A stretch of DNA of 24,000 bases, taken from Acetobacterium bakii (GTDB lineage: Bacteria; Bacillota; Clostridia; Eubacteriales; Eubacteriaceae). A model generated the notes under the pieces. It was not told where the DNA came from, did no database searches, and saw nothing but the letters and a program-made list of their open reading frames with translations. Numbering within the stretch: the first letter of the stretch is position 1; each line of letters begins with the position of its first letter. The stretch covers positions 6,340 to 30,339 of the forward strand of contig NZ_LGYO01000001.1 in the NCBI RefSeq assembly GCF_001263355.1, given 5' to 3'. Position numbers and translations under genes: made by a program. Positions 148 to 10,110 of this stretch are shown piece after piece.

Positions 148-1491
148 ATGTTACATAAATATCAGCTTAACGGACTTAATATAGTTTTGGATGTGGACAC
201 CAGCACGGTGCTGACGGTTGATGATTTGACCTATGGGCTGTTGGATATCTGTGAAAATAAATCGAGTGAGGAAATTCTTGTGCGGTTTGGAGGGGAATAT
301 CCCGCCGCTGACATTTTGGAAAGCCTGGAAGAGATTAAAGTGCTTAAAGCCCGGGGACTATTGTTCACCGAGGTGAAATATGTGCGGGAAAACTATGCCA
401 ATGAGGATCTAATCAAGGCTATCTGCCTCCATGTTGCCCATGACTGCAATCTCAAATGTGAGTATTGTTTTGCGGCCCAGGGGGATTTTGACGGTGAAAA
501 GCTGTTGATGCCTTTGGAAATCGGAAAAAAAGCCATTGATTTTATTATTGAACAATCAAAAAATCGCAAGAACCTGGAGCTGGATTTTTTTGGCGGTGAG
601 CCGCTGATGAATCTGGATGTGGTTAAAGCACTGGTGACTTACGGAAATGAAGCTGCCGCGAAAAACAACAAGATTTTTAAGTTCACCATGACCACCAACG
701 GTGTTTTGCTGAATCCGGAAACCATGGAGTATCTCAATGAAACTATGGATAATATTGTGCTGAGCCTGGATGGTCGTAAAGAAGTCAATGATAAAATGCG
801 AAAAACCGTCAATGACAAGGGTTCCTATGATGTGATCATCGACAATATTAAAAAAATGGCCACCATGCGCGGGGATAAGGATCATTATATCCGGGGGACT
901 TATACCAGCAATAATCTTGACTTTGCCAAAGATGTTCAGTTTTTAGCAGAGGAAGGGTTTAAGAGTATTTCGGTTGAGCCGGTGGTTGCGGATGCATCCA
1001 TGGATTACGCCCTTACGGAAGCGGACCTTCCGATTATTTTAAAAGAGTATGACGATTTAGCGTTAACCTATTTAAAACGTCATGAAGAGGGTCTTGATTA
1101 CAATTTTTTTCACTTCAATGTGGATCTGGATCACGGCCCCTGTGTTTACAAACGACTTTCCGGCTGCGGTGCGGGAAAAGATTACGTGGCGGTGACTCCG
1201 GAAGGTGATATTTATCCCTGCCACCAATTTGTCGGCAAAGAGGAATTCAAAATGGGCGATGTGTTCCATGGCATTACCAACGGCAATATCAAAAAAATCT
1301 TTGATGCGGGAAATCTGCTTGAAAAAGAAAAATGCCAGGAATGCTGGGCAAAATATTTCTGTGGCGGCGGCTGTCATGCCAATGCCTTTAACTTCAACGG
1401 AACGATTATGGAACCCCATCATGTCAGCTGTGAAATTGAGCGGCGACGGGTGGAAAATGCCATTATGATCTCCATCATGGAAGAAAACTAA
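148..1491 (+). CDS. Radical SAM / SPASM-domain peptide-modifying maturase (anaerobic sulfatase maturase superfamily; resembles SCIFF-type thioether maturases)
   Basis: 447-aa ORF with SD 'aaggag' a few nt upstream of the ATG. The radical-SAM CX3CX2C motif 'CNLKCEYC' lies ~100 aa from the N-terminus, so a ~90-aa N-terminal extension precedes it, as in maturases carrying a RiPP recognition element. C-terminal Cys-rich SPASM-like region 'CGAGKDY...YPCHQF...CQECWAKYFCGGGCHANA'. The N-terminus 'MLHKYQLNGLNIVLDV' resembles my memory of SCIFF maturases (not verifiable here). Confidence 0.8.
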   Translation: MLHKYQLNGLNIVLDVDTSTVLTVDDLTYGLLDICENKSSEEILVRFGGEYPAADILESLEEIKVLKARGLLFTEVKYVRENYANEDLIKAICLHVAHDCNLKCEYCFAAQGDFDGEKLLMPLEIGKKAIDFIIEQSKNRKNLELDFFGGEPLMNLDVVKALVTYGNEAAAKNNKIFKFTMTTNGVLLNPETMEYLNETMDNIVLSLDGRKEVNDKMRKTVNDKGSYDVIIDNIKKMATMRGDKDHYIRGTYTSNNLDFAKDVQFLAEEGFKSISVEPVVADASMDYALTEADLPIILKEYDDLALTYLKRHEEGLDYNFFHFNVDLDHGPCVYKRLSGCGAGKDYVAVTPEGDIYPCHQFVGKEEFKMGDVFHGITNGNIKKIFDAGNLLEKEKCQECWAKYFCGGGCHANAFNFNGTIMEPHHVSCEIERRRVENAIMISIMEEN

Positions 1492-1538
1492 AAGATAATC
1501 AAAACAATTGGCAAAGCAATCATCCACAAGAGATTGTT

Positions 1539-1567
1539 TTGACAATTGTTGCAATTTATGGTACATT
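1539..1567 (+). promoter_or_regulatory. Putative sigma-A promoter for rho (TTGACA, 17 nt, TACATT, with TG upstream of the -10)
   Basis: ttgaca at 1539-1544, 17-nt spacer, tacatt at 1562-1567. It sits ~120 nt upstream of the rho start. The -35 overlaps the right arm of a perfect 10-bp inverted repeat (1499-1508 / 1533-1542). Confidence 0.5.
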
Positions 1568-1686
1568 AAGACATAATATTTTCTGAAATATTCATCATTA
1601 TTCAATCTACTTTATTTTCACATTCTGTTTTAGACATCTTTAATCTAAATTCAAATAAGAATAAAAAATATCCACGGAGGCAGGAA

Positions 1687-3372
1687 TTGGACAAAAAATC
1701 ATTGGAGAATTCAACCGTTGTTGAATTGCGTAAACAAGCGGAAACACTGGGAATTGAAAAAATCAGTCGTTTAAAAAAAGAGGAACTGATCGAAGCTATT
1801 GAAGAAAAACAAAAGGTCGAAAGCCCGGAAAGTGCTAAGCCTCTTGAAGCAAAATCCCTGGAACGAAAAACGGTTTCAGCCACTCATCAGCAGACGGGAT
1901 CTGGCGGCGGCGAAAACGGACGGTCACCCTATTATAAAATTAAAGATTCTATGGAGAATGTGGTGGTTGTGGAAGGAATTCTGGAAGTGCTTCCCGGAGG
2001 ATTTGGCTTTGTAAAAAACAAAGATATGAATTCCACTGAGGAGTTTGTCTATATTTCAGGTTCTCAAATTCAAAAATTCAAATTGGAAACCGGCGATGTG
2101 CTCAGCGGCAAGGTACGGCCACCTAAAACAGGGGAAAAATATTCGGCCATGCTTTTTCTGGAAAAGGTCAACGGCACCAAAACAGCGGATATTATCCAAA
2201 AAATCAACAGCATGCTCTATGTGGATGATAAAAAGGATCTGGAACGCTTTAAAACCTCCCAGGAAGGTATTCTGGATGTAAATCCTGATGGCTTTGGGTT
2301 TTTGCGAACGAATCATTATCTGTCCGGGGACAATGATATTTATGTGGCAGCTAACCAGATCCGCCGGTTTAATCTGCGGACCGGCGATAAAATCGTAGGC
2401 AAGATCAAACTATCCAGCGAAAGCGAAAAGTTTGATGCGCTGCTTTATGTTGAAACTGTGAATGGGGATATTCCGGAAAAAATAGCCAATCGTCCGAAAT
2501 TCGAACGGTTGACACCTATTTTCCCGGTGGAACGAATTACTCTGGAAACCAGTCGGGACGTAATTTCGACCCGGATGATCGATATCTTCTCGCCGGTGGG
2601 AAAAGGCCAGCGGGGTATGATTGTGGCTCCGCCAAAAGCCGGGAAGACTATTCTGCTGAAGGAAATTGCCACCGGGATTACCGAGAATCATCCGGAAATT
2701 GAATTGATCATCCTGCTGGTAGACGAACGTCCGGAAGAAGTTACGGATATGAAACGTTCCATTGATGCAGATATTGTTTATTCCACCTTTGATCAGCCAC
2801 CTGAAAATCATATTAAGGTGGCGGAAATTGTGCTTGAGCGCGGCAAACGCCTGGTAGAACAGGGGAAGGATGTGGTGATTCTGGTGGATAGTCTCACCCG
2901 TCTTACCCGGGGCAACAACCTGGTGGTGGCGCCGTCAGGGCGGACACTGTCCGGCGGCCTTGATCCCGAAGCCCTTTATTTCCCCAAGAAATTTTTTGGT
3001 TCAGCCCGAAAAATTGAAGAAGGTGGCAGTCTGACTATTTTAGCAACGGCGCTGGTTGATACCGGAAGCCGCATGGATGATATGATTTTTGAAGAATTCA
3101 AGGGTACCGGCAACATGGAACTGCATCTCGAACGTGAACTGGCCGAACGGCGGATTTATCCTGCCATTAATCTTAACCGTTCAGGAACACGTCGGGAGGA
3201 GATGCTGCTCACACCTCAGGAATTAAAGGTGAGTTTCGATATCCGTAAGTTGTACAAGGGAACTACGGTTTCAGATCTCACCGATAAGATTATCTCGATT
3301 CTGGAACGGACAAAAGACAACAAGGAATTTTTGAAAAAATTTATTGATAAATATAATGCACAAAATATTTGA
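1687..3372 (+). CDS. rho: Transcription termination factor Rho, long form with a duplicated N-terminal RNA-binding domain
   Basis: 561-aa ORF with a TTG start preceded by 'ggagg' (1676-1680). Rho_N-like helix '[30 protein letters not shown]'. Two CSD-like segments containing 'GFGF' and '[10 protein letters not shown]' / '[10 protein letters not shown]'. Walker A 'APPKAGKT', '[10 protein letters not shown]', '[12 protein letters not shown]', and '[28 protein letters not shown]' typical of Rho. Confidence 0.95.
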
Positions 3373-3455
3373 TCTTTTAAGAAATCTTTGATATAATAGC
3401 TCAGTTGATAAAATAACAAAGCCCTATAAAATAAAGAAGAAGCGAGGTGAATTCG

Positions 3456-3668
3456 ATGAAAGAAGGCATTCATCCTAATTACAAAAAATCAATAGTTAAA
3501 TGTGCATGTGGAAATACTTTTGAAACTGGTTCAGTTAAACCTGAATTAAAAGTAGAAATTTGTTCCGCCTGTCATCCATTTTTTACAGGAAAACAAAAAC
3601 TTATTGATACCGGTGGTCGTGTTGATCGATTTAACAAAAGATTCAATAAAAGCGATTCAGAAGAATAA
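3456..3668 (+). CDS. rpmE: 50S ribosomal protein L31, Zn-binding type A
   Basis: '[11 protein letters not shown]...CACGNTF...[26 protein letters not shown]' is a classic L31 sequence with both CxxC pairs. I chose the ATG at 3456 (SD 'gaggtga' at 3444-3450) over the upstream GTG at 3447 used by the ORF track. Confidence 0.95.
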
Positions 3669-3675
3669 CAAAAAA

Positions 3676-3701
3676 AGTCGGTTCTTGCAACCGGCTTTTT
3701 T
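3676..3701 (+). terminator. Rho-independent terminator after rpmE
   Basis: Stem agtcggtt (3676-3683) pairs with aaccggct (3689-3696), 8 bp including one G-U. Loop is 5 nt, followed by a T-run (cttttttc). Confidence 0.8.
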
Positions 3702-3866
3702 CTTGCGCGAAAGCAACGAGCCCGGTGAGTGCAGACACTTATTTGGCTATCCCTCGGGAAGTAGTCAGAAAGTTGAATCGCAGTTTGATGCTTTAAATTT
3801 GGGGAAATAATTGTTTCAACAAACAATTAGGATATAAAATAAACTATTAAATATCGGGGTAAACCT

Positions 3867-4730
3867 ATGGATGTAAAGGAAATTTTAGATTTTGGGACAA
3901 CTATTCTGAAAAAGGCTGGCGTTGAAAATCCCAGACTGGAAGCGGAAATACTGCTAAGTTATATTTTGGATTGCGATCGCGTTTATTTTTATGCGCATCC
4001 CCAGGAAAAGGTGGATCAGCTTCAAAAAGAGGCCTATTTAAAGGGGCTTGTACGACGGTGTGAAAATGAACCGATGGCATATATTTTCGGTAAAAAGGAA
4101 TTTATGGGAATGAGCTTTGAAGTGAGTCCTGATGTTCTCATTCCCCGGCCGGATACCGAGCCCATGGTGGAATATCTGATTCAACGGCTGACGAATGATT
4201 ACCCAAAGGGTGCCAAGATCTTTGATCTCTGTACCGGCAGTGGGGCCATTGGCATCGCTCTGAAAAAATTTTATCCCCAGGGTGAGATTGCCCTGGGGGA
4301 TATTTCAACAGAAGCGCTAAGGGTTGCCGGGGCTAATGCAAAGCAACTGGTTAAAGGGGCGGTCACCCTTTATCAGGGAGATTTATTTGCGGCACTGCCA
4401 AAGGATGAAAAATTCGATGTCATTGTGTCAAATCCTCCTTATATAAAAAGGATGGATATGCAGGCTCTGGCACCGGATATTTTAAACTATGAGCCCCATT
4501 TAGCACTGGATGGCGGTAGTTCGGGACTGGATTTTTACGAGCGGATCATTGCTGAAGCCAGGGATTATCTCAAAACGCCAGGGATTTTAGCCCTGGAAAT
4601 CGGGGATGACCAGGAAGTGTCGGTTATTGATCTGCTGGTAAAACATGGCTATGCCAATATCGAAAAGCATTATGATCTTGGCAGTCATGTACGATGTCTT
4701 GTTGGAGAACATATAGAAAAGAAATCATAA
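3867..4730 (+). CDS. prmC: Peptide chain release factor N5-glutamine methyltransferase (HemK/PrmC)
   Basis: 287 aa. SAM-binding 'DLCTGSGAIGIAL' and the catalytic 'NPPY' motif ('VSNPPYI'). 'EPMAYIFGKKEFMGMSFEVSPDVLIPRPDTE' is typical of PrmC. No prfA is adjacent. Confidence 0.9.
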   Translation: MDVKEILDFGTTILKKAGVENPRLEAEILLSYILDCDRVYFYAHPQEKVDQLQKEAYLKGLVRRCENEPMAYIFGKKEFMGMSFEVSPDVLIPRPDTEPMVEYLIQRLTNDYPKGAKIFDLCTGSGAIGIALKKFYPQGEIALGDISTEALRVAGANAKQLVKGAVTLYQGDLFAALPKDEKFDVIVSNPPYIKRMDMQALAPDILNYEPHLALDGGSSGLDFYERIIAEARDYLKTPGILALEIGDDQEVSVIDLLVKHGYANIEKHYDLGSHVRCLVGEHIEKKS

Positions 4731-4823
4731 TTCATAAATACTGATGACGCATAAAGAAAATTGTGATAAAATAGAAAAATAAATATTTATAGATAGAAAA
4801 CAAACCCATAGCGGAGGTATAAT

Positions 4824-5381
4824 ATGGTATCAGCAGGTGATTTCAAAAAAGGTGTAACCTTTGAAATGGATGGCAATGTATTTAGCATTATCGAATTTCA
4901 ACATGTTAAGCCAGGAAAAGGCGCAGCCTTTGTACGTACCAAGATTAGAAATGTAAGATCGGGAGCTGTGGTTGAAAAAACATTCAACCCTACAGAAAGA
5001 TATCCCAAAGCCCAGGTTGAAACCAGAGAAATGCAATATCTCTATGAAGATGGCGGTCTGTACTATTTTATGGATGGGGAAACCTTTGAGCAAATACCTT
5101 TAAATTTCGAACAGGTTGAAGAAGCATTGAAATATTTGAAAGAAAATGATAATGCCACCGTTCGTTCATTAAAAGGCATTGCATTTTCAGTGGTTGCACC
5201 AAATTTTGTTGAATTGGAAATTGTTAAAACAGATCCAGGATTTAAAGGCGATACCGCTACCGGCGCCAATAAACCTGCAACTGTGGAAACAGGTGCTGTC
5301 ATTACTGTTCCTCTCTTTGTTGAACAGGGTGATGTCATTAGAATTGACACACGTACCGGAGAGTACATGGAAAGGGTATAA
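4824..5381 (+). CDS. efp: Elongation factor P
   Basis: 185 aa. '[41 protein letters not shown]' includes the conserved modified-Lys loop 'KPGKG'. SD 'ggaggt' lies upstream. Confidence 0.97.
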
Positions 5382-5383
5382 AA

Positions 5384-5824
5384 ATGAAATATATTAATGA
5401 AAAAGTATTTTACACCAAGGGGCTTATGGATGGTTTGGATTTGGACAAAGGTTCAAATGAAGGCAAGATTTTAGTCCAGGTATTGGATATCCTTGAAGAC
5501 ATTGTAGATGCCTTAGATGGCTTAACCGAAGCTCAGGAAGAACTGGAAGCCTATGTTGAAATGGTTGATGACGATCTGACTGATTTAGAAGAATTCATTC
5601 TCGATGAAGACGGTCTTTTAGAAGACGATGATGAAGAATTTGAATTCGACGATGAAGATTTTTACGAAGTTGTCTGCCCGGAATGTGGGAATGTCTATAT
5701 TACTGAGTTTGATGCTTTTGAAAAGAATGCTGTTATCTGTCCTGAATGTGGGGAACCGTTTCGTCTGGAAGAAGAAATCTCCTGCTGTGGCGAAGACGGT
5801 TGTGACTGCCATCAGGAAGTATAA
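5384..5824 (+). CDS. Highly acidic protein with a C-terminal double CPECG zinc ribbon (conserved hypothetical; function unknown)
   Basis: 146-aa ORF starting 2 nt after the efp stop. It has a long D/E-rich central tract, then 'CPECGNVYI' and 'CPECGEPF', then 'CCGEDGCDCH'. I recall similar efp-adjacent proteins in Clostridia, but their function is unknown. Confidence 0.65.
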   Translation: MKYINEKVFYTKGLMDGLDLDKGSNEGKILVQVLDILEDIVDALDGLTEAQEELEAYVEMVDDDLTDLEEFILDEDGLLEDDDEEFEFDDEDFYEVVCPECGNVYITEFDAFEKNAVICPECGEPFRLEEEISCCGEDGCDCHQEV

Positions 5825-5843
5825 TGATTTATGGTAGAATAAA

Positions 5844-6188
5844 ATGAAAAAAGAAACCAGAAACAGCCAGTATCCGGAGATTTCGGATGAAATGGTCTAC
5901 TCTATTGTTAGCTTAGCGGCAACAGGAGTTGATGGTGTTGAACGGATGTCATTGAGAATAACCGATGAGATCATCGAGAAATTTTCGATAACGCCCACTG
6001 TAAAGGGCGTAAAGATCAGCCATGAGCCCGAAGGGCTTTTGGTTGGGGTTTACTTAATTACCGCAGCCGGAGTTGATATTGTCAAAGTTTCTAAAGAAGT
6101 CCAGGCAAAAATCAAAGAATCGGTTGAATCCATGACAGGCCTGGAAATTGCCGCGGTTAATGTAAGAATCGAAGGTTCAGGTATTTAA
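5844..6188 (+). CDS. Asp23/Gls24 family envelope/alkaline-shock protein
   Basis: 114 aa. 'ISDEMVYSIVSLAATGVDGV...VKGVKI....V.VYLITAAGVDIVKVSKEVQAKIKESVESMTGLEIAAVNVRIEG' matches the Asp23 family pattern. The asp23-nusB order is common in Firmicutes. Confidence 0.85.
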   Translation: MKKETRNSQYPEISDEMVYSIVSLAATGVDGVERMSLRITDEIIEKFSITPTVKGVKISHEPEGLLVGVYLITAAGVDIVKVSKEVQAKIKESVESMTGLEIAAVNVRIEGSGI

Positions 6189-6215
6189 GGACTCTTTCAA
6201 AAAAATTACAGGACA

Positions 6216-6346
6216 GGGGCTGTTGCAAAATAAAAAAGAACCGCATGATGGTTTTTTTGAATCTAGCTAAGCACCCGTTTATGCAAGGCTTTCATGAATG
6301 TCTTGCATACGGATGCTTAATCAGAGTTTTGTAACAGTCTCTTTTT
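6216..6346 (+). other. Nested inverted-repeat RNA structure (outer 15-bp stem enclosing two hairpins) followed by a U-run; complex terminator or unclassified structured RNA
   Basis: Hand-paired. Outer stem 6216-6230 with 6327-6341 (15 bp, 3 G-U). Inner hairpin A 6234-6242 / 6250-6258 (A/U-rich). Inner hairpin B 6268-6287 / 6302-6319 (~17 bp with a 2-nt bulge and one mismatch, 14-nt loop). 'ttttt' at 6342-6346. Confidence 0.4.
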
Positions 6347-6415
6347 GAAGTTTTGAATAAAGACATTTTTTCTAATTAACTTCATGAAATATACACGAAA
6401 AAAGAAGGAGAACGC

Positions 6416-6832
6416 ATGAGTCGAAAAAAAGAAAGGGAAAGTGCCCTGAAGGGTGTGTTCCAATTAGACTTTCATAATGAATCCGGGGATTTTAAAGAAA
6501 GCGTTGCTTATTTTTTAGAAGATAGTGAACTGGATCTTGGTTACGGGAAAACCTTGATTGAAACCACTGAGGAACATCTTTCAGAAATTGATGACATTTT
6601 AAATGATTACTTAAAGAGTACCTGGAAAATTGATCGCATCCCCAAGATAGAAAAATCAATCCTGCGGCTGGCCATCTGTGAGCTTATGTTTATGGAAGAA
6701 AAGACCCCATTTGAGGTTGTCATCAATGAAGCCATTGAGCTTACCAAATTGTATGGGGATGAGGATGGTAAAAATTACGTCAATGGTATTCTAAATAAGA
6801 TTGTCAAGGATGGACTCAATGAGTGCCCTTAG
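6416..6832 (+). CDS. nusB: Transcription antitermination factor NusB
   Basis: 138 aa, SD 'aaggag' upstream. 'RKKERESALKGVFQLDF...W.IDRIPKIEKSILRLAICELMF...PFEVVINEAIELTKLYGDEDGKNYVNGILNKI' is the typical NusB pattern. Confidence 0.93.
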   Translation: MSRKKERESALKGVFQLDFHNESGDFKESVAYFLEDSELDLGYGKTLIETTEEHLSEIDDILNDYLKSTWKIDRIPKIEKSILRLAICELMFMEEKTPFEVVINEAIELTKLYGDEDGKNYVNGILNKIVKDGLNECP

Positions 6833-7802
6833 TCTGGGAATTGATACCAGTAATTACACCACTTCGGTTGCCCTGGTGGATCAAAACGAAACAGTTATTT
6901 ATAACCAGGGTATCCTATTGGAAGTGAAGTCCGGAGAAAGAGGGCTTCGCCAATCGGATGCTCTTTTTCAGCATGTCAATAATTTGCCCCTTCTTTTAAA
7001 AGACCTGCCCCGAGGCCGGGAAATTGAAGTTGTATGTTTTTCGGACCGACCACGGCCATTACCTGATTCTTATATGCCTGTTTTCCGAGCCGGGAAATCC
7101 CTTGGCCAATCTCTGGCCGGCGTTTTAGATGCCGATTTAGTGACGGTCAGCCACCAGGAAAATCATCTTCGGGCCGCCATTTTCGGAAGTGGTTCGCCAG
7201 TCCTTAAGGATCCTTTTTGTGCGGTTCATTTCTCCGGGGGAACTTCTGAAATCCTTTTGGCAACTAGGGAAGGCATCGGTTTTCGCTGCGAAATCATGGC
7301 CAAAACACTGGATCTCAACGCCGGTCAACTCATTGATCGGATCGGGGTCCTGCTGGGATGTGCTTTTCCCGCCGGGAAGGCATTGGAAGTGCTGGCGCAA
7401 AAAGCCATCGATCATGATCAGGGGAAACACTGTATTATTCCATCGACAATGGATGGTATGAATTTCCATTTTTCCGGTCAGGAAAACCAGGCCAAAGAGT
7501 ATTTAAATAAAGGGGTGGATCCCAGCGAGGTGGCCTACAGTCTGCTCAAGGCCATTGCTAAAACCCTGTCAAAATCCATCTCCCGCTGCAGAGAAACCCA
7601 ATCCTTTCAGTCTGTTTTATTTTCCGGAGGAGTGATGTCGAATCAGATTATAAAAAGCATTCTCCTCAAGGAACTGGGAAGATCCGGATTAGCCCTTCAT
7701 TTTTCACCAGGTATTTATGCCCGGGATAATGCCCTGGGCAATGCCTTGCTGGGAATGGATCATTATAAAATTACAGGAGGCAGTCTCCATGAAAAATCCT
7801 AG
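6819..7802 (+). CDS. Kae1/TsaD-like (glycoprotease/M22, ASKHA-fold) family protein, paralog type
   Basis: 'LSLGIDTSNYTTSVALV' N-terminal ASKHA phosphate-1 motif. 'VSHQENHL' aligns with the TsaD 'VxHxxxHL' metal-binding motif. 'FSGGVMSN' lies near the C-terminus. The start is uncertain: the ORF opens at TTG 6801, with ATGs at 6810 and 6819. I chose 6819 because 'aagga' lies ~8 nt upstream. The gene overlaps the nusB 3' end. Confidence 0.7.
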   Translation: MSALSLGIDTSNYTTSVALVDQNETVIYNQGILLEVKSGERGLRQSDALFQHVNNLPLLLKDLPRGREIEVVCFSDRPRPLPDSYMPVFRAGKSLGQSLAGVLDADLVTVSHQENHLRAAIFGSGSPVLKDPFCAVHFSGGTSEILLATREGIGFRCEIMAKTLDLNAGQLIDRIGVLLGCAFPAGKALEVLAQKAIDHDQGKHCIIPSTMDGMNFHFSGQENQAKEYLNKGVDPSEVAYSLLKAIAKTLSKSISRCRETQSFQSVLFSGGVMSNQIIKSILLKELGRSGLALHFSPGIYARDNALGNALLGMDHYKITGGSLHEKS

Positions 7803-8997
7803 AATCTTAAGTGTTACCGAGGTAAATCAGTTTCTTAAAACTTTATTGGAAAGCAACAGTCTTTTAAAAAATCTGGTGATCCAGGGAGAATTGTCCAATG
7901 TTAAACGGGCGGCTTCGGGACATCTTTATTTTTCGTTAAAGGATCCAGCCAGCAAAATTGACTGTGTAATGTTTAAAAACGCGGCCATGGGTATTAAATT
8001 TGTACCAAAAGAGGGGCTGAAGGTCACCCTTCGGGGCAGCCTTGGGGTTTACCCGCCCAGCGGTCAATACCAGATTACGGTACGTTCCATGGAACCCCAG
8101 GGACAGGGGGATTTGTATCAGGCCTATCTGGCCTTAAAAGGTGACCTTGAGAAGAAGGGCTATTTTGATCCCGAGCACAAAAAAAAGCTGCCGGTTACCA
8201 TCAGCCGGGTGGGCATTGTCACGTCGCCAACCGGTGCGGCGGTTGAGGATATGATTTCCATTATTAAACGAAGAAATCCGATGATGGATATTGTGCTTTA
8301 TCCCAGTCTGGTCCAGGGTGAGGCGGCAGCGGCCAATATTATTGCCGGGATTAAGGCATTTAATGCTTTAAAGACAGTTGATGTTATTATTATTGGTCGC
8401 GGCGGCGGTTCCATTGAAGATCTCTGGGCATTTAATGATGAAAACCTGGCCCGGATAATTTTTGAATCCGAACTGCCCATTGTTTCGGCGGTGGGCCATG
8501 AAATTGACTTTACTATCGCCGATTTTGTTGCTGATCTGCGTGCCCCCACTCCCTCTGGCGCGGCAGAGTTGGTGGCAGAGGAAACCAGAAATCTGATCCA
8601 GAGTCTGGATCAGGTGAAAAACCGGATGATCCAGGCCATGAAGATCCAGATCAATCAAAATCGGGAAGTCCTCTTTAGGCTCAATAAGGATCTTTTGCGT
8701 TTTCACCCCCGGCAGCGAATTGATGAAATACGCATCAGTCTGGATGTTGTCCAGGAAAAGATGCTGCGTTCAATGAAGGTCATGATCAAAGACAACCGGC
8801 AACAGCTTAAACACCTGGAAGCCAGGCTTGACGCGGTTAACCCCACCAATGTTCTTAAGCGCGGGTATGTACTGGTGACTGACGGCAAGGGCATACCCAT
8901 TGGAACTGTTAAGGACCTTGCGCCTGACCAATCCCTGAGCCTACGCTTTAAGGATGGTTTGGTTTCGGTACGAATTGAATCGATAAAGGAGAATTAA
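7789..8997 (+). CDS. xseA: Exodeoxyribonuclease VII large subunit
   Basis: 'ILSVTEVNQFLKTLLE....L.NLVIQGELSNVKRAASGHLYFSLKD...KIDCVMF' (OB-fold N-terminus) and 'IGRGGGSIEDLWAFNDE.LAR.I..S.LPIVSAVGHEIDFTIADFVADLRAPTPSGAAE'. Start taken at ATG 7789 (SD 'aggagg' at 7775-7780) rather than the ORF-track 7717. Confidence 0.93.
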   Translation: MKNPRILSVTEVNQFLKTLLESNSLLKNLVIQGELSNVKRAASGHLYFSLKDPASKIDCVMFKNAAMGIKFVPKEGLKVTLRGSLGVYPPSGQYQITVRSMEPQGQGDLYQAYLALKGDLEKKGYFDPEHKKKLPVTISRVGIVTSPTGAAVEDMISIIKRRNPMMDIVLYPSLVQGEAAAANIIAGIKAFNALKTVDVIIIGRGGGSIEDLWAFNDENLARIIFESELPIVSAVGHEIDFTIADFVADLRAPTPSGAAELVAEETRNLIQSLDQVKNRMIQAMKIQINQNREVLFRLNKDLLRFHPRQRIDEIRISLDVVQEKMLRSMKVMIKDNRQQLKHLEARLDAVNPTNVLKRGYVLVTDGKGIPIGTVKDLAPDQSLSLRFKDGLVSVRIESIKEN

Positions 8998-8998
8998 A

Positions 8999-9214
8999 AT
9001 GGCAGTAAAAAAATTAAAGGCAAAATTAAGTCGACTGGAAGAAATTGCTTTGATTCTCGAAGGTGAAAATCAGGAAATTGAAGCATCCATTAAGTTGTTT
9101 GAAGAGGGCATGAAACTCGTTAAAGAATGTACCGGAGATTTGGATTCCCTGGAAGGAAAAATTCTTGTTCTGATTGATGGTGAGGAAAAAGATTTTGAAG
9201 GGAGAATTAGCTAG
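8999..9214 (+). CDS. xseB: Exodeoxyribonuclease VII small subunit
   Basis: 71-aa helical protein immediately after xseA. 'LSRLEEIALILEGENQEIEASIKLFEEGMKLVKEC' fits the XseB pattern. Confidence 0.9.
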   Translation: MAVKKLKAKLSRLEEIALILEGENQEIEASIKLFEEGMKLVKECTGDLDSLEGKILVLIDGEEKDFEGRIS

Positions 9215-10110
9215 TGTTAGATTTTGAATCAGCATTGAAGGAGAAGGTAAAGCGAATCAACGAGAATCTGGAGGCGGCCTTCCAACAAACCCCGGATATT
9301 CCCCCGGTGATTTTGGAATCCATGAAATATAGCCTTCAGGCCGGCGGTAAGCGGCTGCGACCGATGCTGATGATTGAAACCTGTCGATCCCTGGACGGGG
9401 ATGTGGCGGTGGTGATGCCACTGGCTCTGGCTATCGAAATGATTCACACCTACTCGCTGATTCATGATGATTTGCCAGCCATGGATAATGATGATTTAAG
9501 ACGGGGAAAACCCACCAATCATAAGGTTTATGGTGATGCCATTGCCATACTGGCCGGCGATGGACTGCTTAACTATGCCATGGAAACCATGCTTCAGGGT
9601 GCGGAAGGTCTTTATGGTGAAATGTTGATTCGATACATTGATGCCATGAAGACCATTATGAGTGCTTCCGGTATTTCCGGCATGATCGGTGGCCAGGTTG
9701 CGGATATGCAAAGCGAAAATCGGGTTATTTCCATGGATGAAATGGATTATATTCATTTGCATAAAACCGGTGCGCTACTGGAAGCCGCGGTGGATTGTGG
9801 CTGTATCATTGCAGATGCAGAGCCCGCAACCAGGGGCCGATTAACGACCTATGGTCATCATATCGGTCTGGCTTTTCAGATTGTCGATGACATTCTGGAT
9901 ATTGAAGGTAATGTGGGGGATCTCGGCAAACCCATTGGCAGTGATGAAAAAAATCACAAATCAACCTTTGTGACCTTGTATGGATTGGAGGCTTCTAAAA
10001 TTCGGGTGACTGAATTGCATTCGGAAGCTTTAGAGATGCTTAAGCCGATTGGGCAAAAAACAAAATTTCTTCAGGAATTGGCAGAGTATATCTGCACCCG
10101 GAGAAATTAA
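9214..10110 (+). CDS. ispA: Farnesyl diphosphate synthase / (2E,6E)-polyprenyl diphosphate synthase
   Basis: 298 aa, GTG start overlapping the xseB stop by 1 nt. 'GGKRLRP'. First Asp-rich motif 'IHDDLPAMDNDDLRRGKPT'. Second Asp-rich motif 'FQIVDDILD'. 'GKPIGSDEKNHKSTFV'. Confidence 0.9.
   Translation: MLDFESALKEKVKRINENLEAAFQQTPDIPPVILESMKYSLQAGGKRLRPMLMIETCRSLDGDVAVVMPLALAIEMIHTYSLIHDDLPAMDNDDLRRGKPTNHKVYGDAIAILAGDGLLNYAMETMLQGAEGLYGEMLIRYIDAMKTIMSASGISGMIGGQVADMQSENRVISMDEMDYIHLHKTGALLEAAVDCGCIIADAEPATRGRLTTYGHHIGLAFQIVDDILDIEGNVGDLGKPIGSDEKNHKSTFVTLYGLEASKIRVTELHSEALEMLKPIGQKTKFLQELAEYICTRRN

Follow-up and report, generated by a model that had tools for sequence, protein, structure and literature searches.

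Rho picks the sites at which it terminates transcription through its primary RNA-binding site, and how this choice varies among bacteria is poorly understood. The DNA analysed here, a stretch of 24,000 nucleotides from Acetobacterium bakii (hereafter the window), carries a rho gene whose product was proposed, in a preliminary description, to contain two tandem copies of the cold-shock-like OB domain that forms this site. The locus therefore raises the questions of whether both copies are genuine Rho-type RNA-binding domains, how old the duplication is, and what a Rho with two such domains in each protomer may do with the second one.

A doubled RNA-binding domain in Rho is already known, as a bioinformatic observation, from a survey published in 2024. 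Moreira, Chyou, Wade & Brown (Nucleic Acids Res 52:8979, PMC11347177) described a duplicated tandem RNA-binding domain in the Rho of Eubacteriaceae (abstract, Fig. 5A-C), with four members including Acetobacterium woodii and Eubacterium callanderi and 23 more from GenBank, and reported that both copies, modelled with AlphaFold, can be superposed on E. coli Rho. According to its treatment of the duplication, 'all the critical residues' are present in both copies; that treatment includes neither a phylogeny of the copies nor an analysis of selection, and it reports no experiment. A full-text literature search returned no other paper on the duplicated domain of Eubacteriaceae Rho, and a 2025 review of Rho does not mention it. 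Of the novelty implied in the preliminary description, then, the duplication itself must be credited to the 2024 survey, but it holds good that we found no experimentally characterised Rho with two OB domains.

The Rho of the window shows the same feature in the same clade and adds a further Acetobacterium species: two adjacent domains (aa 93-165 and 192-264) are joined by a linker of 26 aa, as compared with about 20 aa in the published proteins and the 20-25 aa or so that we took as typical of them. What we add to the published account is evidence for a single origin of the duplication and for selection on both copies, together with a set of reciprocal, clade-wide residue losses. A two-site Rho that has been kept through family-level diversification amounts to a natural experiment on rut recognition.

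The rho gene and its product

The rho gene occupies positions 1687-3372 of the window on the forward strand (561 codons plus stop in the list of open reading frames), as do all features of the gene given below, and a search of the organism's own 4.1-Mb genome identified this locus as its sole rho. Its start codon is TTG, which stands 6 nt after a Shine-Dalgarno sequence GGAGG that can be read at positions 1676-1680. The same arrangement of GGAGG and TTG recurs in many of the rho relatives examined (loci L003-L041), and TTG is the aligned start in 17 of 30 genes sampled from this order and other Clostridia; the rho TTG is thus a conserved weak start codon paired with a strong ribosome-binding site.

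The 561-aa product is a bona fide transcription termination factor Rho. The whole protein scores 681.1 bits against the NCBIfam Rho equivalog NF006886 (cut-off 315) and 645.9 bits against TIGR00767 (cut-off 509.45), and in addition to these matches it has the Rho_N domain, the OB binding site and the RecA-type ATPase of a Rho protein. Its best protein matches come from Acetobacterium sp. (91-92% identity), which places the host within the Eubacteriaceae in the sense of the NCBI taxonomy.

The neighbourhood of rho (window 148-10110) consists of ordinary housekeeping genes. A radical-SAM enzyme gene lies upstream, and downstream are found rpmE (L31), prmC, efp, an Asp23-family gene, nusB, a TsaD-like gene, xseA and a polyprenyl synthase gene. 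Between efp and the Asp23-family gene there is an open reading frame (5384-5824, forward strand) for a very acidic protein of 146 aa with two CxxC pairs, for which a Pfam search gave no match.

Two OB domains between the helix bundle and the ATPase

The order of domains in this Rho is helix bundle, variable spacer, first OB domain (copy 1, or OB1), helix, second OB domain (copy 2, or OB2) and ATPase. The N-terminal helix bundle (aa 1-45; 1687-1821) is matched by Pfam Rho_N (PF07498) at aa 6-42 with 42.2 bits (cut-off 24.9, E = 7.8e-11), and AlphaFold2 places helices in it at residues 3-7, 11-20 and 31-45. The spacer that follows (aa 46-92; 1822-1962) is variable and disordered, with pLDDT below 50 over aa 46-79, and ends directly before copy 1 in the motif Y-x-K-[IL]-K-D, in which Y82 is invariant and K86 and D87 are conserved at a level of at least 90%. 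Among relatives the length of the spacer between bundle and copy 1 ranges from 12 to 158 aa; in two-OB Rhos, therefore, the classical variable insertion region coexists with a fixed second OB domain. The short spacers among loci L003-L032, of 12-16 aa, belong to Anaerofustis and the UBA1433 group, and the long ones, of 108-158 aa, to the Eubacterium limosum group and the genus labelled g9.

Copy 1 (aa 93-165; 1963-2181) is a diverged Rho-type cold-shock/OB domain, delimited by the Pfam match, the alignment with E. coli Rho and the predicted fold. It is separated by the linker (aa 166-191; 2182-2259), which we defined from the AlphaFold2 secondary structure and from conservation, from copy 2 (aa 192-264; 2260-2478), whose residues, by Pfam match, E. 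coli alignment and tree position, are those expected of a canonical primary RNA-binding site. The remainder of the protein (aa 265-561; 2479-3369) comprises the connector and the RecA-type ATPase/translocase domain, recognised by superposition, by the Pfam match to ATP-synt_ab (PF00006, aa 295-499) and by its Walker A (PPKAGKT, 315-321) and Walker B (DERPEEV, 346-352) motifs, both of which are invariant in the alignment of relatives.

Against Pfam Rho_RNA_bind (PF07497), which has a cut-off of 27 bits, the full-length protein reaches 186.6 bits over two stretches. Each copy is also significant on its own: a fragment of aa 90-170 containing copy 1 scores 89.7 bits (E = 1e-25) and a fragment of aa 185-265 containing copy 2 scores 106.8 bits (E = 5e-31). 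The proposal of two tandem RNA-binding domains, which a single significant match would have refuted, is thus borne out by two independent ones. The interval originally assigned to them, 1963-2469, corresponds to aa 93-261 and spans both copies, and the two 68-aa segments quoted for them agree exactly with the translation and do align without gaps, with 29 of 68 residues identical. By BLASTP the copies share 42% identity (E = 3e-21). Their DNA is 55.9% identical overall and 41% identical at third codon positions, which indicates that the duplication is old.

An AlphaFold2 model of the whole protein, built on a 43-sequence alignment (mean pLDDT 84), predicts that both copies adopt OB folds. The succession of strands and helix is the same in each, with strands at 93-101, 107-110 and 121-123, a helix at 125-130 and strands at 138-144 and 153-161 in copy 1, and strands at 192-198, 204-207 and 218-220, a helix at 222-227 and strands at 235-241 and 250-258 in copy 2. 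Copy 1, whose fold had been named as a point on which the proposal could fail, reaches pLDDT 90-95 in its core when modelled alone with the linker; the best 50 matches of this model in the PDB are all Rho structures, and it superposes on the Rho OB domain, that of E. coli included, at 1.5-2.1 Å over 71-81 columns. For copy 2 and the ATPase, superposition of the model on E. coli Rho (8q3n_A) yields Z = 50.7 and an rmsd of 1.8 Å over 381 residues, pairing model residues 174-554 with chain residues 24-418.

The same superposition offers a tentative view of what was duplicated. Linker residues 174-191 of the model fall on residues ~24-50 of E. coli Rho, the last helix of the N-terminal bundle; positions 33-412 of the NCBIfam Rho profile align to residues 168-551; and in each copy the first glycine is preceded, at a distance of exactly ten residues, by a K-D motif. 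Because of these three correspondences, the duplicated unit may have been helix 3 of the bundle plus the OB domain, with the linker helix taking the role of helix 3 beside copy 2. The linker is modelled as helices at 166-180 and 183-186 and carries a conserved motif of its own, K-D-x-x-R-[YF]-x-x-S-[QH]. The suggestion is tentative since the linker has a pLDDT of 60-66, since hhalign of the linker with the helix bundle gave the expected register at a probability of 1.2%, which is not significant, and since Pfam Rho_N matched the linker in none of 16 members. For the last two reasons we dropped the claim that the linker is homologous to helix 3 by sequence.

Distribution and origin of the duplication

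To place the duplication in its clade, Rho_RNA_bind was searched in genomes at the levels of family, order and class. Within the family, matches were obtained in 50 of 53 genomes, representing 9 of 9 genera, and in each of the 50 there are two of them in a single frame, spaced by about 290 bp; the three genomes that yielded no Rho_RNA_bind match are 70-84% complete. Within the order, the tandem is present in all rho-bearing genomes of four of the five families (f1, f2, f3 and f5), and the fifth family (f4) has a single Rho_RNA_bind domain. Across the class (300 Clostridia genomes from 71 families) the tandem was found in f1, f2, f3 and f5 only, with no tandem Rho_RNA_bind in the approximately 60 other Clostridia families sampled. 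Three genomes with two hits each (G151, G180 and G349) were considered as candidates for an independent tandem duplication and rejected, the hits being in separate genes or on separate contigs. Family f1 contains Acetobacterium, the Eubacterium limosum/callanderi and barkeri/aggregans groups and Pseudoramibacter, f2 Alkalibacter and Alkalibaculum, f3 Anaerofustis and f5 UBA1433-like members, and together these four constitute the Eubacteriaceae of the NCBI taxonomy. The survey of Rho architecture in related genomes that the preliminary description had recommended has thus shown the tandem in every rho-bearing genome of four families.

From the start of copy 1 to the start of copy 2 there are 93-98 aa in every one of the 28 genus representatives. 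Phylogenetic analysis of 69 OB domains resolves copy 1 as one clade (support 100/100) and copy 2 as another (98/92), with the two copies of the window each falling within the corresponding clade, and copy 2 groups with the OBs of single-domain Rhos from f4 and from other Clostridia; a topology in which copy 1 and copy 2 are sisters is not rejected (p-AU = 0.48). In a tree inferred from the ATPase domain only, a 100/100 branch separates all two-OB Rhos from f4 and the outgroups. Because of the clades in the domain tree and this branch in the ATPase tree, our results indicate a single ancient origin, the simplest history being that the tandem was gained once and, within the sample, never lost.

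Strong purifying selection acts on both copies. We estimated dN/dS at ~0.05 for copy 1, ~0.035 for copy 2 and ~0.016 for the ATPase domain, values that are approximate as dS is near saturation, and the mean identity across genera is 60%, 63% and 72%, respectively. Distribution, trees and dN/dS together uphold the earlier statement that this is an old, maintained duplication. They leave next to no room for the reading that the doubling stems from misassembly or represents an in-frame repeat that is decaying in this one genome, which had been discounted from the start and which we regard as excluded: no evidence was found in its support, the same architecture is shared by more than 78 species genomes, complete chromosomes included, the two copies are 56% identical in DNA, and the frame is selectively constrained and runs without stops.

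Reciprocal losses at the binding-site residues

We numbered both copies after E. coli Rho by HMMER alignment (copy 1 to residues 51-127, copy 2 to residues 52-136) and scored the pyrimidine-recognising set F64, R66, D78, Y80, E108 and Y110. R66, D78 and Y80 are among the six residues with which E. coli Rho recognises pyrimidine nucleotides (Murayama et al. 2023, PMC9908020). In the window, copy 2 has F, R, D, Y and E at the first five positions of the scored set and F at the sixth, 110, and it also keeps F62 and has S in place of K105. Copy 1 has the set in part, with R66 replaced by K and D78 by F; F62, F64, Y80, R102, K105, E108 and Y110 are retained.

The same residues were tallied in 78 species genomes, the loci having been retrieved with copy-1 peptide patterns spanning positions 79-88 and 112-120; the numbers obtained for Y80, Q87 and R88 are for this reason partly circular, and positions 66, 78 and 102-110 lie outside the patterns. 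A set of 28 genera chosen without reference to sequence gave the same residue picture. Position 66 is R in copy 2 in all 78 genomes, as it is in 13 of 13 single-domain Clostridia, and in copy 1 it is K in 58, R in 6 and another residue in 14. Position 78 is D in copy 2 (78/78) and in the single-domain proteins (13/13) and is never D in copy 1 (0/78), where it is Y in 31, F in 18, a gap in 11, and H, W and Q in 4 each. The pattern is reversed in the basic loop, in which position 105 is K or R in copy 1 (78/78), K in single-domain Clostridia (13/13) and never basic in copy 2 (0/78; G, N, S, A or D). R102 is invariant in copy 1 (78/78) and in the single-domain proteins (13/13) and is R in 53 and K in 25 of the copy-2 domains. 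Other positions are widely retained: Y80 in copy 1 (78/78, a partly circular count), in copy 2 (77/78) and in the single-domain proteins (13/13); E108 in copy 1 (78/78) and in the single-domain proteins (13/13), with E in 67 and D in 11 of the copy-2 domains; and Y110 in copy 1 (77/78), where copy 2 has F or Y in 72 of 78 and the single-domain proteins have F in 7 and Y in 6. Copy 1 also has a conserved signature of its own, consisting of E60 (73/78), Q87 (76/78, partly circular), M113, F115 and T124, residues without a recognised RNA role.

By these counts the losses are reciprocal and clade-wide, copy 1 having given up the R66/D78 pair and copy 2 the PPK segment of the loop that precedes E108. 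The complementary conservation that had been described for the two copies is therefore confirmed as a pattern and needs correction in its particulars. Copy 2 had been said to lack the entire stretch RPPK.GE.Y; it has lost P103, P104 and K105 only, keeps E108, and has K for R102 and F for Y110, and the replacement of D78 by F in copy 1 had been overlooked. The tallies also seem to contradict in part the statement in the 2024 survey that 'all the critical residues' are found in both copies, given that copy 1 never has D78 and mostly has no R66, and that copy 2 never has K105; the residue set behind that statement, as worded in the part of the paper that treats the duplication, may differ from ours.

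The reciprocity in every species examined (K or R at 105 in 78/78 OB1 domains against 0/78 OB2 domains; D78 in 0/78 against 78/78) would also be expected if neither OB domain were complete after duplication, degeneration and complementation, so that OB1 and OB2 formed one extended surface per protomer, to which OB2 is proposed to give the cytosine-reading R66/D78 and OB1 the basic RPPK loop that OB2 is missing. The fixed period of the copies and the conserved linker helix, which suggest a rigid relative placement, point the same way. Against such a composite site stand the low confidence with which the linker is modelled and the literature on K105, which records that this residue of E. coli Rho contacts Rof and that K105E arose as an adaptive change in evolved E. 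coli. As these two facts are what the literature shows, we do not claim K105 as an RNA contact and regard an RNA role of the PPK loop as putative, and we hold the composite site to be improbable.

A probable role for the second OB domain

The reading we prefer, with a probability of roughly 0.55, is that copy 2 is the canonical primary site and copy 1 an auxiliary RNA-binding module with a changed base preference. An in-frame tandem duplication of a unit of ~97 residues, made up of the OB primary RNA-binding domain and probably the short helix preceding it, would have taken place in an ancestor of the Eubacteriaceae in the broad sense. OB2, which adjoins the motor domain, would then represent the canonical YC-dinucleotide pocket with the pyrimidine-recognising residues of E. 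coli Rho. OB1 is a kept and strongly constrained second OB domain that has the aromatic platform and the 5' pyrimidine pocket (F62, Y80, E108 and Y110) and the basic loop (R102 and K105), and that has exchanged both residues that read the 3' cytosine, R66 mostly for K and D78 for an aromatic residue or a gap. Such a domain would probably still bind single-stranded RNA, its base preference being relaxed or altered, and would put a second ring of six RNA contacts on the crown of the hexamer; these additional contacts would raise the affinity for nascent RNA or broaden the choice of rut sites, as N-terminal insertion domains do.

With R66 and D78 gone, it could also be that the canonical pocket of OB1 no longer binds RNA. 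One form of this idea is that OB1 is a pseudo-RNA-binding domain, which lost RNA recognition after the duplication and was kept for another role; it could serve as a surface for RNA polymerase, for NusG/NusA or for another Rho protomer, or as a regulatory or autoinhibitory lid over OB2. This would agree with the complete absence of D78 and the replacement of most R66 residues in OB1, with the conserved signature peculiar to this copy, and with the long branch that parts OB1 from all other Rho OB domains (0.79+1.09 changes per column). However, OB1 holds Y80, E108, Y110 and F62, which stack on and enclose the 5' pyrimidine, and likewise the basic R102, K105 and K109, with little or no variation, a constancy that stability of the fold would not by itself demand; as the invariance of pocket and basic loop is hard to explain in this way, we consider OB1 likely still to bind single-stranded RNA. 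Furthermore, Thermus thermophilus Rho (PDB 8HSJ/8HSR), whose OB domain differs from that of E. coli at R66, D78 and Y80, has kept a preference for C-rich RNA (PMC9908020), and by analogy it may be taken as a precedent for a working OB domain that lacks the R66/D78 pair; it differs from the window Rho in having a single OB domain, and OB1 of the window, for its part, keeps Y80. On these grounds we judge a pseudo-site to be unlikely.

A further possibility, which we put forward only tentatively, is a division of the ancestral site between OB1 and OB2, in which OB2 would read cytosine through R66/D78 and OB1, with its aromatic residue at position 78 and its intact 5' pyrimidine pocket and basic loop, would read other RNA, for example U-rich or purine-containing sequences. 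If so, there would be twelve pockets on the hexamer crown, with two specificities among them, rut sites of the AT-rich acetogens of this clade would obey a rule other than the C-rich, G-poor rule of E. coli, and the family would provide a natural case of a Rho that altered the terminator code through domain duplication.

Like the Rho of the window, typical E. coli Rho (PDB 1PVO, 1PV4 and 8Q3N) has a helix bundle, an OB primary binding site, a connector and a RecA-type ATPase, the two proteins sharing 51-56% sequence identity with Z ~50 over OB2 and the ATPase; E. coli Rho has one OB domain per protomer, whereas the window Rho has a second OB domain and a helix between the bundle and the canonical OB. 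In the Rhos of Mycobacterium tuberculosis, Micrococcus luteus and Bacteroides, which have insertion domains, the extra polypeptide is likewise found between the bundle and the canonical OB, and such insertions raise RNA affinity and widen substrate choice (PMC8828861, PMC11347177). From the shared position we infer, by analogy, that OB1 may act as the insertion domains do, on affinity or substrate choice. The two kinds of insert differ in nature, however, those of insertion-domain Rhos being mostly disordered, of low complexity and basic, and that of the window Rho being a folded, conserved OB copy accompanied by a short disordered spacer.

The reciprocal losses point to precise mutants in which these readings could be tested. 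Acetobacterium woodii and Eubacterium limosum, two acetogens of interest to biotechnology, can be manipulated genetically.

Tandem Rho-type OB domains in other proteins

A search for tandem OB domains in a representative library of 1.84 billion proteins returned 7 hits below 1e-30. The top hits that we mapped by domain (P0122-P0124) were considered as other ancient tandem-OB Rhos and rejected, as they are of the same type or are fragments. In P0130 (L123:941-2491, metagenome ERZ23880518) a unit of SAP/Rho_N plus OB occurs twice with a period of 169 aa, behind a long basic N-terminus rich in Q, N, R and G, on a contig of 2.5 kb. Its two OB copies are 100% identical, which indicates a very recent duplication or an assembly artefact, and it was likewise not accepted as an ancient tandem-OB Rho. 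Two further proteins, P0147 (811 aa) and P0166 (371 aa), were set aside as tandem-OB Rhos because in each of them an ECF-type sigma factor with regions 2 and 4 is joined to a pair of OB domains of the Rho_RNA_bind type; P0147 additionally carries Clp_N repeats and a bifunctional-nuclease domain. Tandem Rho-type OB domains thus occur outside Rho as well.
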